From Escherichia coli (GTDB lineage Bacteria; Pseudomonadota; Gammaproteobacteria; Enterobacterales; Enterobacteriaceae), in the NCBI RefSeq assembly GCF_030013205.1, contig NZ_CP122648.1: 64,000 bases of DNA. One strand, given 5' to 3'. The position numbers are program-made. Below are positions 46,201 through 49,200 of the stretch, piece after piece (the stretch's first letter is position 1; every line of letters begins with the position of its first letter).

Positions 46201-49200
46201 AATCTGCTCACGCATATCCTGCGTTGCTGACCAGGCATTATCAAAGTTGCACAGCACCTTGCGATGCCAGTCAGTCATCTTTTTTTCTGCCATATCAACC
46301 TACACCACAAGGAATTGAGTAACTGGAATAGTCGGGTTGCGCAGCCGACTCTGGGCAATGCATACACATCATCAGCGCATCAGCCAGGTTAGGAGATGGA
46401 ATACCGAGCTTCTGCTTCATTTCGACCTTAGTCATAAGCTCCAGCTTCCCGTTGTTATTGAATTTGCGCTGAATCTGCGTCAGTTCTGCAAACAGCTTCT
46501 CCAGCATCTTCTCGCCTATCGCTTCTTTGTCAAAACTCAGCATGTCGTCGGGGTCCGCATACTCACCGTGAACAACCGCCCGATATGTCAGATACAGCCT
46601 GTCAGCCAGCGCGTAATAGAATTGCGCTCGCTTATTGCGGAATACATCGCCAATAGTGCGAACGTTGTCGCCCTGTACGGCTTCATCAGCCCATGCTCCG
46701 GCCTGATAAGGCGAATCTTCATCAAATGGCGATTCGCTGCCCTTGAACATCGTGGCGGTGATTTTCTTACCGGAGAACGCTTCCGCTGTCTGTCTGCGTA
46801 GACCTGCACCAACACCATCACCATCCCACAGGTAATGGTCAGCGCCGTCTTCAATAGCCAGCGAAGTAGCCCAGTCAGCACCCTCGTTGATGTCCATCAG
46901 CAGGCCTTCGGCAATGCGCTTAACAACCGAACCGTGACGCGATGCATAACCTTTAGCATCTGGCCCTGTATCTGATGGGTCATGTGCAGAAACAACCGCG
47001 CCTTTCGCTTTCCATCCGAGTTTCTTGTGCGCATCGGTTGCGGCTTCAAGCCATTCACGTTTGATGATTGCCATATCACTTGCGCTTACTGGCTCACCAA
47101 GCCAGATGTGACGATACAGTGTCTGATTTCTGCGTTTACACTCTTCCATCTCCAGACGGAGAACTTCAGGAAAATGCGGGTTGTCGGTGTAGTTCACCGT
47201 CAGCAGGCAAATATCATCGGGAGGATTTACAACGAATCGCTGATAGGTATCGTCGAGGATGTTCTTCGGGTTAAAGCTCACCCATATTTCGGAAAACGGC
47301 TTGCGGATGGTTGGTATCAGGATGTCCCATGATTCCTTTGTTACCGCTTCCGCTTCTTCCACCCAGCAGATATCAATGCCTTCTAGCGATTTAATCTTCG
47401 TTGGGTTGTTTTTTATGCCGTAGAACATGAATTCAGCATTCGTTCCGAGATGACGAATCATTGAACGCTGAATTTCAAACTCAGCCGAATACCCTTCACG
47501 CTCGATGGTGTCTTCAAGCAACCGGATTACCGAATCGCTGATACTGTTTTGCAGTTCACGAGCGCAGAGAATACGCACAGGCTGCCGACGCGCCGCTTCA
47601 ACAAGCAGCCTCGCAATTGCCCATGACTTACCGCTACCTCGACCGCCTTTGGCGACTTTGTAGCGATGCGCCTCAATGAACGGTTCAAAGATAGGATTAA
47701 TCGAGGTCATTTTCCGAATAGAGTGCTCATCGGTGATGTTTCAATCTGAATTGCGCCGCCGTCTTTGCCTGTTAGCTCGTGATCAACCTTGTCGCGCCAT
47801 TTATCCTTCTGTCGGTTCTTAAGCCAGAAGATGGCAGCGGTTGTATCAGGCGGGTAATACTTCTCAAGCGGAGTTTCGACAATTCTGTTTTCAATAACAC
47901 GAATATCGATGTCTGGAGCCACGAAGCCCATAGCGCGTTGATAAAGACGATCACTAACTTCTGCATCAGCGACGGCCTTACCCTTTTTTATGGACTCCGA
48001 AAACTTAGGATAATCAATCTTCCACTTGTTAATAGTTGACTCACTGACTTCAAAGAAATCAGCAAGTTCTGCATCGGTGTAGCCCAGCAAGCACAGTTTG
48101 CGTGCCTGTTCGGCATACGCCTCTTGATACTTTGTTGGGCGCGCCATGTTTATGCTCCGGTGGTGAACAGGTCTAACGCTTCCTTCGATTTACGCACCGC
48201 TTCGATAGTGCGGGTCGTGATATCCGAATTAGCGCCGCCTGACTGGAAGTGAATTTTGAATAGTTCAAGCTTCAGCTCGTCAGTGCCAATGAACTGAAAT
48301 GCTTCTTCTGCGGCTGCGTTCTGGTTCATGACCAGTTTGTAAATCTCTAACTGGAATTTCTGTTCTTCAGTCATGGGAATAATCTCTGCCATTGTTGGCT
48401 CCGTTTATCCGTTAAAAGGGATATCAGTTAAGTTATCCCGTGTAGGGTATAAGCCATTATCAAAGCCACTCTGTAGGGAATGGCTTTTGTAATAACTACT
48501 GTTCGCTTAGCTTCTGCTTCAGCAAGTAACCTTCGAGCATCCAGATTTTGTTTACAGCATTCTGCCGGGCAATCTTCCGACCAATTTCTGCATCAAAGTT
48601 TTCCGGGCTTGCACAGGCACTCTCTCCGGTAACGGTGAAGCCATTCTTCAGCACCAGTACGCAGAAAGTGAGCAACTTCAATGGTGATAAATCACGATCG
48701 CCTTCTTCTGGTTTTTCCCTGCCACAATATTCGTTGCTGGAAATGGCACCATTTCGTCCATCATAAGCAGTAAAGTAATGCTCGCTTTTAATCACGTCTT
48801 CGATGTGCTGCGGGGTGATTCGCGGTGCCGTTTTGCCTTTCTCAACGATTTCTTTTTCGATTTGCTGGTCGTTCATAATTATGACCCTGTGGAGTGGTTG
48901 CTTGATTAGGATGTCTTTCCATCAGTCCGCCACCACAAAGAATCTTTTTTGCCATAAGGCTGGAGGTTCATCTTTCAGTGGCTGCCAGTGTTATTTCCCC
49001 ACTTACTGGCTTGGGTTGTTTCGCTGTACTGCCGTAACTGGTTACCCAGAATAAATTTTGGTTTCATTATCAAGCCCATCCGTAGATAGGCTTTGTAATG
49101 AACTGGCTCTTATCTCAACGCAGCCCCTTACCGCGCGCCAGATGCTCAATATCAAGCATCAGCAATGAGATGTTTAATCTGGATTCACTCCAGAAGTGAT

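Follow-up and report, generated by a model that had tools for sequence, protein, structure and literature searches.

The Pfam family PF13876 ("Phage_gp49_66") corresponds to anti-CBASS 4 (Acb4), where CBASS is the cyclic oligonucleotide-based antiphage signaling system; 1,331 members are listed, and the core fold is of the alpha-beta-beta-beta-alpha type in a homotetrameric pinwheel (bioRxiv 10.1101/2024.12.30.630793). Acb4 of phage SPO1, a protein of 96 aa, binds four molecules of 3'3'-cyclic GMP-AMP (3'3'-cGAMP) in the inter-subunit pockets of its tetrameric pinwheel with a dissociation constant of ~157 nM, and blocks CBASS in vitro and in vivo (bioRxiv 10.1101/2024.12.30.630793). All eight homologs purified from across the family tree bind 3'3'-cGAMP and none binds cyclic di-GMP (c-di-GMP); assayed homologs with divergent contact residues still bind cGAMP, and those from phages of Gram-negative hosts additionally bind 3'3'-cyclic di-AMP (3'3'-cAA) (bioRxiv 10.1101/2024.12.30.630793). 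A second group also equates PF13876 with Acb4 and reports that CBASS in E. coli is cancelled by an Acb4-Tad2 fusion, as is Thoeris. The current study deals with two adjacent small open reading frames (ORFs), ORF126 and ORF80, in a stretch of 64,000 nucleotides from Escherichia coli (NCBI RefSeq assembly GCF_030013205.1, contig NZ_CP122648.1), the whole of which is referred to as the window. ORF126 belongs to PF13876 and ORF80 to PF10834 (DUF2560), and overall the pair probably represents intact late-operon cargo of a P22/Sf6-type phage, i.e., an Acb4 gene plus a DUF2560 gene, that is now silent in a defective prophage; we assign to this reading a probability of about 0.72.

The closest described locus is found in phage Sf6 (AF547987, Casjens et al.), whose genes 65, 66 and 67 have the same order and strand 3' of Rz/Rz1, with a DNA identity of 98.4%. 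The Sf6 protein gp67 equals ORF80 exactly, as do the homologs of HK620 and epsilon34, and gp66 (Q716B1) is one residue off ORF126. Sf6 differs by a 58-bp leader insertion, an extra gene 68 before the genome end/small terminase gene and a different small terminase, and it is an active phage with Q, a late promoter and complete lysis genes. In P22, Orf80 is 98.8% identical to ORF80 and, situated between rha and gene 3, likewise lies just upstream of the packaging genes, but P22 has no Acb4 gene, and rha, ~830 bp of mostly non-coding DNA and orf59c surround Orf80.

Compared with SPO1 Acb4, ORF126 is likewise phage-borne, small and stand-alone, matches the same Pfam family over the full length of the domain, and keeps the core motif NGF.V.G.SAC..P.NFD.EIG as well as three hydrophobic or stacking contacts (SPO1 F48, F62 and I66, which are F80, F94 and I98 in ORF126). 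In contrast to the SPO1 protein, ORF126 comprises 126 aa and has an extended N-terminus as well as a variable insert (residues 36-66); the similarity is weak and does not go beyond the core domain, some of the base-specific and phosphate contacts are lost, and ligand binding and tetramer formation are predicted from homology. Moreover, SPO1 is a virulent Bacillus phage, whereas ORF126 is located in the late operon of a temperate phage.

Two late-operon genes of known phage families

ORF126 matches PF13876 with 120.8 bits (cut-off, 27; E 3.4e-35; model positions 1-82 of 82), and ORF80 matches PF10834 with 147.7 bits (cut-off, 25; E 1.1e-43; model positions 1-72 of 72). ORF126 is identical to UniProt entry A0A0H2Z1H7 of E. 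coli APEC O1, and both this entry and Q716B1 are listed by Chang et al. (bioRxiv 10.1101/2024.12.30.630793, Table S3). A search with ORF126 alone against PDB entry 9E4W (SPO1 Acb4) gave a phmmer E-value of 0.007 over 43 residues, and a profile of 21 family members searched against the PDB sequences reached 9E4W with E 3.3e-10 over 74 positions, the next match having E 0.18. On the basis of these sequence comparisons, the assignment of ORF126 to the Acb4 family can be regarded as solid.

Both ORFs are also represented in PHROG families, and none of the four proteins checked has an NCBIfam model. Among 14 distinct module copies, variation is concentrated at third codon positions, the variable sites at codon positions 1/2/3 amounting to 2/0/16 in ORF80 (i.e., 16 of the 18) and to 37/32/65 in ORF126. 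The two genes are adjacent in Sf6 (genes 66 and 67), phiKp_30, Huey, CUS-3 and mEpX1, and they occur as a pair in 215 of 5426 complete E. coli genomes. They are real genes under purifying selection across phages, and as such already known, already annotated and ordinary cargo of P22/Sf6-type phages.

A preliminary description had listed an 80-aa and a 126-aa ORF of conserved appearance on the late-gene strand, between the truncated lysis region and the small terminase gene. Both were recovered in the ORF listing as described, at 48150-48392 and 48496-48876, and the domain scores and codon-position pattern bear out the impression of conservation. Homologs in the same order were present in Sf6, P22 (Orf80 only), HK620, epsilon34, CUS-3 and many prophages, so that the lack of phage homologs, which would have spoken against that description, clearly does not apply. 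That description had considered both functions unknown to its author, which is out of date for ORF126, since PF13876 is Acb4 and the exact sequence appears in the published table; its reading was right in kind and is hence partly supported. The region is composed of the following features:

47707-48147 (-): small terminase subunit gene, the downstream neighbour in the late operon (phrog_309, E 1.5e-67)
48150-48392 (-): ORF80, 80 aa, DUF2560 protein equivalent to P22 Orf80, Sf6 gp67 and HK620 HkbM (PF10834; phrog_571)
48393-48495 (-): ORF126-ORF80 spacer with hairpin copy 2 and the ORF80 ribosome-binding site GGAG
48496-48876 (-): ORF126, 126 aa, Acb4-family protein (PF13876, "N4 Gp49 / Sf6 gene 66"), a predicted cyclic-dinucleotide sponge against CBASS
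48877-49114 (-): non-coding leader of the cargo slot, with hairpin copy 1, a variable 5' half and a 105-nt core
49115-49267 (-): Sf6 gene 65 homolog, 50 aa (phrog_11822), overlapping the Rz stop codon
49255-49483 (-): remnant of the C-terminal half of the i-spanin gene Rz with an embedded remnant of the o-spanin gene Rz1 (PF03245, PF06085; flagged as pseudogenes by the Prokaryotic Genome Annotation Pipeline, PGAP)
49586-49605 (seen on both strands in the scan): two-way terminator-like hairpin between xis/int and the Rz remnant

A prophage remnant without its late promoter

The two genes are part of a P22-like prophage remnant of ~20 kb at the lambda attB site between ybhB and ybhC (window ~31000-50950; L004 3312-23203). 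The PGAP annotation was taken from the chromosome of E. coli ETEC4079 (NZ_CP122643.1), which is 100% identical over 2.2 kb around the ORFs. It lists, in this order, the tailspike, the ant/arc/mnt region, ejection proteins, capsid, scaffold, portal, large and small terminase, a "DUF2560 family protein", a "Gp49 family protein", a 50-aa hypothetical protein, the Rz and Rz1 pseudogenes and, on the opposite strand, lambda-type xis/int. In the direction of late transcription the small terminase gene is followed by the large terminase gene and then by a P22-type portal gene. The remnant lacks the early region, the Q antiterminator, the late promoter, holin and endolysin.

Similarity to P22-like phages stops at position 49483, inside Rz, which marks the deletion junction (megablast). 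The Rz ORF (49255-49767) matches only positions 51-125 of 126 of PF03245, and PF06085 (Rz1) matches as well; the N-terminal part of Rz is missing, and PGAP flags both genes as pseudogenes. The joint of Rz and xis is covered by a single one of the 5426 E. coli genomes, so the deletion is strain-specific and probably recent. Just before xis (xis/int, 49636-50902, +) lies the strong two-way terminator-like hairpin AAACCGCCTGATGGCGGTTT (49586-49605), which would block read-through into the late-strand genes. On the lambda side of the junction (49480-49605, +), the C-terminal end of the gene upstream of xis is left, again annotated as a pseudogene by PGAP. Two further observations concern the structural genes of the remnant and make it doubly defective: the capsid gene stands directly before the gene for a "tail needle knob protein", the homologs of P22 genes 4 and 10 apparently being missing, and the gene for the gp16-type ejection protein is a pseudogene without both ends.

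In an active phage, the Q-dependent late promoter would drive the expression of ORF126 and ORF80 along with that of the lysis and head genes, the two being cargo in a variable slot between the lysis cassette and the packaging genes of a Lederbergvirus-like late operon. ORF126 would, by homology, form a homotetramer that sequesters the cyclic-dinucleotide signal of CBASS (3'3'-cGAMP and related molecules), the CBASS effector would stay inactive, and the phage cycle could be completed. ORF80 would be made from the same transcript as a small, acidic, all-helical cytoplasmic protein, its gene being tightly coupled to the next one. In the present remnant a deletion has joined xis to the middle of Rz and has removed Q, the late promoter, holin and endolysin. 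Since Q and the late promoter are deleted, both genes are probably silent here, and they are most likely silent passengers in ETEC4079. No sigma-70-like promoter was detected on either strand between 47600 and 49900, where shuffled sequences lead to an expectation of 3.0 +/- 2.0. The intactness of the two ORFs is attributed to the recency of the deletion and not to a need of the host.

Possible roles of ORF80 and ORF126

Several points weigh against the reading preferred here, i.e., silent late-operon cargo composed of an Acb4-type sponge gene and a DUF2560 gene. Ten published contacts of SPO1 Acb4 were considered (K36, F48, E49, V56, Y57, F62, N63, I66, T70 and K81), which map onto the chain letters of 9E4W with an offset of one; K36 and K81 lie beyond the aligned region. 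Five of the eight aligned contacts differ, E49, V56, Y57, N63 and T70 being T81, C88, A89, D95 and I102 in ORF126, although the N63 contact is made by the backbone; because of these five residues the ligand spectrum may differ from that of SPO1 Acb4. [quoted passage not shown] Expression from a late operon is an unusual timing for an anti-defence protein. The promoter scan is a simple consensus search, and weak or non-sigma-70 promoters may exist. As for ORF80, any role is deduced from context, its acidic surface is unlike that of a nucleotide sponge, and its neighbours include ordinary regulators (Rha, KilA-N).

With respect to ORF80 itself, the protein is acidic (isoelectric point, 4.7; net charge, -5), and an AlphaFold model with a pLDDT of 81 predicts four helices (residues 9-21, 25-35, 39-54 and 58-77). 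It has no match to any characterised family, and the literature on DUF2560, HkbM and P22 Orf80 yielded nothing useful, the epsilon34 genome paper being silent on the region. The family is narrow. When 5.8 billion proteins were searched by word index, 93 relatives came up, of which all but the weakest (92/93) carry PF10834 and the named ones are enterobacterial; when 1.8 billion representatives were searched exhaustively with a profile, 75 reached E <=0.001, mostly stand-alone proteins of 74-92 aa with identities down to ~27%.

Two more specific assignments were rejected. Sequestin (PF21825) is no recognizable relative: PF21825 did not match to E 0.1, and hhalign of DUF2560 versus PF21825 gave a probability of 2%, while the YH6 and Pa2 fusions serving as positive control matched PF21825 at E 1e-11 to 1e-12. 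The second candidate, an Aca-type helix-turn-helix (HTH) regulator, is at odds with the lack of a match to any Pfam HTH family, the lack of a significant HTH structure match, and the pI and charge given above. In a wider comparison, ORF80 resembles Sequestin, Tad1, Tad2 and Acb2 in being short and phage-specific; these sponges often adjoin Acb4 or are fused with it, and Tad2-like and Acb2/Tad1-like genes use the same genomic slot in relatives. It differs from them in the absence of profile or fold similarity, in being acidic instead of having a positive pocket, and in that no fusions of DUF2560 with sponge domains were seen.

In HK97-type siphoviruses, no more than the first 28 ORF80 codons are left, joined to an HNH gene, and DUF2560 is therefore dispensable. 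Our best guess for ORF80 is a dispensable small protein-binding factor that might inhibit a host function or defence; an enzyme or a part of the virion is considered less likely.

It is possible, if tentatively so, that ORF80 is an anti-defence protein, i.e., a small acidic inhibitor of an immune or housekeeping protein of the host, beside a slot in which anti-defence genes are swapped. ORF80-type genes lie directly 3' of four anti-defence types, namely Acb4 (window, Sf6), Tad2-like (Huey; 8/80 loci), Acb2/Tad1-like and AcrIF11-like genes, and the protein is small, soluble, phage-restricted, under strong purifying selection and, given the HK97-type remnant, dispensable. In phage Huey a Tad2-like gene (PF11195, E 1.7e-24), Acb4 and DUF2560 stand in a row. 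A distant DUF2560 homolog follows an Acb2/Tad1-like (hairpin-domain) gene on another contig (L023 1591-1827, E 2.7e-15), and one homolog has a DNA polymerase theta-like gene as its neighbour in an unrelated accessory cluster, away from lysis and packaging genes. The AcrIF11-like neighbour, an ADP-ribosyltransferase gene beside a DUF2560 homolog (L024 3434-3892), comes solely from precomputed Pfam annotation, and the Pfam copy used here did not return it. The association is further weakened by the content of the slot. It was surveyed in 80 IMG/VR loci that all encode an ORF80 protein identical to that of the window, and the following counts are hence informative about the slot and not about the diversity of the family:

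Sf6 gene 65 homolog: 46/80 loci
Rha: 26/80 loci
Acb4: 16/80 loci (one frameshifted)
KilA-N: 13/80 loci
Tad2-like: 8/80 loci
GIY-YIG / T5orf172 nuclease: 6/80 loci
DUF551: 3/80 loci

Tad2-like and Acb4 genes occur together in three of the 80 loci, and several small unknown genes are found as well. The region from Rz to ORF80 is thus a cargo site in which counter-defence genes are frequent without being the main content; regulators of the Rha or KilA-N type are the more frequent content, and guilt by association is weak. Three side observations may be added. The Tad2-like protein of Huey (CDS0064, L002 997-1497) has an extra N-terminal domain, and some relatives have this gene between gene 65 and the leader. 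The Huey homolog is labelled "anti-CRISPR protein" in pharokka style, which appears to be a generic anti-defence label and not a sign of anti-CRISPR activity. On one related phage contig (L070 2764-3125) Acb4 is frameshifted and split into ORFs of 62 aa and 52 aa, i.e., the gene can decay in some lineages.

For ORF126, a protein with the Acb4 fold and a ligand or role other than that of the SPO1 protein is rather doubtful. Such a protein might bind another immune nucleotide or exert a second activity via its N-terminal extension of ~65 residues. The base-specific and phosphate contacts E49, Y57 and T70 of SPO1 Acb4 are not conserved, and residues 36-66 form a variable insert; according to Chang et al. 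(bioRxiv 10.1101/2024.12.30.630793), the extensions of several homologs may add functions, and the specificity changes with the host. Against this stand the binding of 3'3'-cGAMP by every purified homolog and the intact core motif of ORF126. The Sorek-lab sponge screen supplements contain neither the ORF80 nor the ORF126 sequence.

Among the specific roles of ORF80, anti-defence is the more likely one, and a late-function helper in the transition from lysis to packaging, e.g., a lysis-timing factor or a terminase accessory protein with no action against the host, comes next and is unlikely. The gene order speaks in favour of a helper. Ten contigs with distant homologs (27-44% identity) were read, nine of which were informative, and in eight of these nine the DUF2560 gene follows an Rz-type spanin gene; it directly abuts Rz in two contigs (L106, L109) and precedes packaging genes where the contig continues. 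In the window ORF80 has a GGAG ribosome-binding site 6 nt 5' of its ATG, and its own last codons (..ACCGGAGCATAA) hold the GGAG Shine-Dalgarno sequence for the small terminase gene, which starts 2 nt past the ORF80 stop. However, the packaging genes 3' of DUF2560 are of at least five unrelated types (Terminase_3 plus P22 portal, Terminase_2, HNH plus Terminase_4, DUF2280 and phrog_309), and the lysis enzymes differ, which makes a specific partner unlikely. Furthermore, HK97-type phages with the same flanking DNA manage with 28 codons, and the homolog in the accessory cluster is far from any lysis or packaging gene.

That both genes are independently transcribed morons kept for the benefit of the host is highly improbable: they are intact amid destroyed lysis genes, and some cargo genes of phage late regions, as known for morons, are driven by promoters of their own (discussed in PMC2629481), but the scan revealed no promoter-like site, host defence would be weakened by a sponge acting on the CBASS signal of the host itself, the ORFs are identical or nearly identical to the copies of active phages, and the rarity of the Rz-xis junction explains their intactness by recency.

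The conserved leader and the ends of the cargo slot

The preliminary description had found no convincing ORF in the 378 bp upstream of ORF126 (48877-49254). This has to be corrected, because an ORF at 49115-49267 (-) matches phrog_11822 over profile positions 1-50 of 50 (E 3.9e-38) and is annotated by PGAP as a coding sequence (WP_001139680.1), so that only 48877-49114 is without a convincing ORF. Sf6 gene 65 occupies the equivalent position, and the 50-aa homolog has a hydrophobic N-terminus.

The stretch between this gene and ORF126 holds a non-coding leader of ~190 nt that opens with a hairpin motif. The leader (48877-49114) is conserved at 88-99% in 177 phage records, which range from P22-like podoviruses to HK97-like siphoviruses. 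According to an alignment of 14 phages of two morphotypes, its 5' half is variable, and its core of 105 nt (48916-49020) is nearly invariant and ends at a sharp mosaic boundary (..GGAAAGACATC), 3' of which at least three unrelated modules continue. The nucleotide diversity of the parts compares as follows:

core of the leader (105 nt): 0.013
spacer between ORF126 and ORF80: 0.008
third codon positions in ORF126: 0.132
third codon positions in ORF80: 0.059

Given their lower diversity, the leader core and the spacer are more constrained, or more often homogenised by recombination, than nearby silent sites. The leader RNA folds better than 200 of 200 shuffles (z-score, -3.2). An Rfam scan of 47600-50000 at E up to 1 gave no match, and RNAalifold applied to ten leader copies returned one compensatory pair and a negligible covariation term of -0.27; since the copies vary too little, an RNA structure is neither supported nor rejected.

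The start of a mini-ORF (MAKKILCGGGLMERH; 48955 downward, window 48842-48955, -) is conserved in the leader at the nucleotide level and runs out of frame into ORF126 in the window. In some Salmonella phages the MAKKILCGGGLMERH start is in frame with a DUF2560-type gene, resulting in gene calls of 117-118 aa ("Orf118"; proteins P0003 and P0013). The mini-ORF may be a leader peptide or an artefact of gene calling; the mini-ORFs of the leader, i.e., the sense one starting with MAKKILCGGGLMERH, a 34-aa ORF and an antisense 47-aa ORF, had no PHROG match.

An imperfect hairpin (TTACAAAGCC-loop-GGCTTGATAATG) with fixed flanks is present twice on the late strand, at 49065-49098 and at 48455-48492. Its motif, TTACAAA(A)GCC-loop-GGCTT(T)GATAATG, has two copies in the window versus 0.00 expected by chance. 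The first copy opens the leader upstream of ORF126, and the second one (TTACAAAAGCC..GGCTTTGATAATG) follows just past the ORF126 stop; the same motif is found at cassette ends in related loci and phages. One-sided changes in hairpin 1 preserve G-U pairs on the late strand. Neither copy has a U-tail, so the repeated hairpin is not a classical terminator. Of 5426 complete E. coli genomes, 2658 match the two-gene query in some part, far more than the 215 that have both genes. Most of the partial matches are due to the 90-bp spacer with hairpin 2 and the ORF80 leader (48404-48493), which occurs in about half of the genomes. In HK97-type phages this spacer runs on into the 28 ORF80 codons only.

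Taken further, these observations would make DUF2560 an anti-defence or host-takeover family whose fixed position behind the lysis cassette marks an undescribed anti-defence hotspot of lambdoid phages, with cassettes of the Acb4, Tad2-like, Acb2/Tad1-like and AcrIF11-like types exchanged between the hairpin TTACAAAGCC..GGCTTGATAATG and a functional 105-nt leader. We regard this wider proposal as quite doubtful; as a part of it, the leader may be a structured RNA, a recombination linker or an element of translation control.

The function of DUF2560 and the conservation of the leader and the hairpin are the remaining questions, and they are tractable by genetics in P22, Sf6 and HK620. A pair of genes that appeared as "hypothetical" in a dead prophage can now be read as an Acb4-type anti-CBASS gene and the long-known, unexplained Orf80 of P22, while annotation pipelines still label the ORF126 type as "Gp49 family". 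The junction of lysis and terminase genes in lambdoid phages looks like a slot in which counter-defence genes are swapped. With the exact pair present in ~4% of the complete E. coli genomes, Acb4-type counter-defence is common in the prophages of this species.

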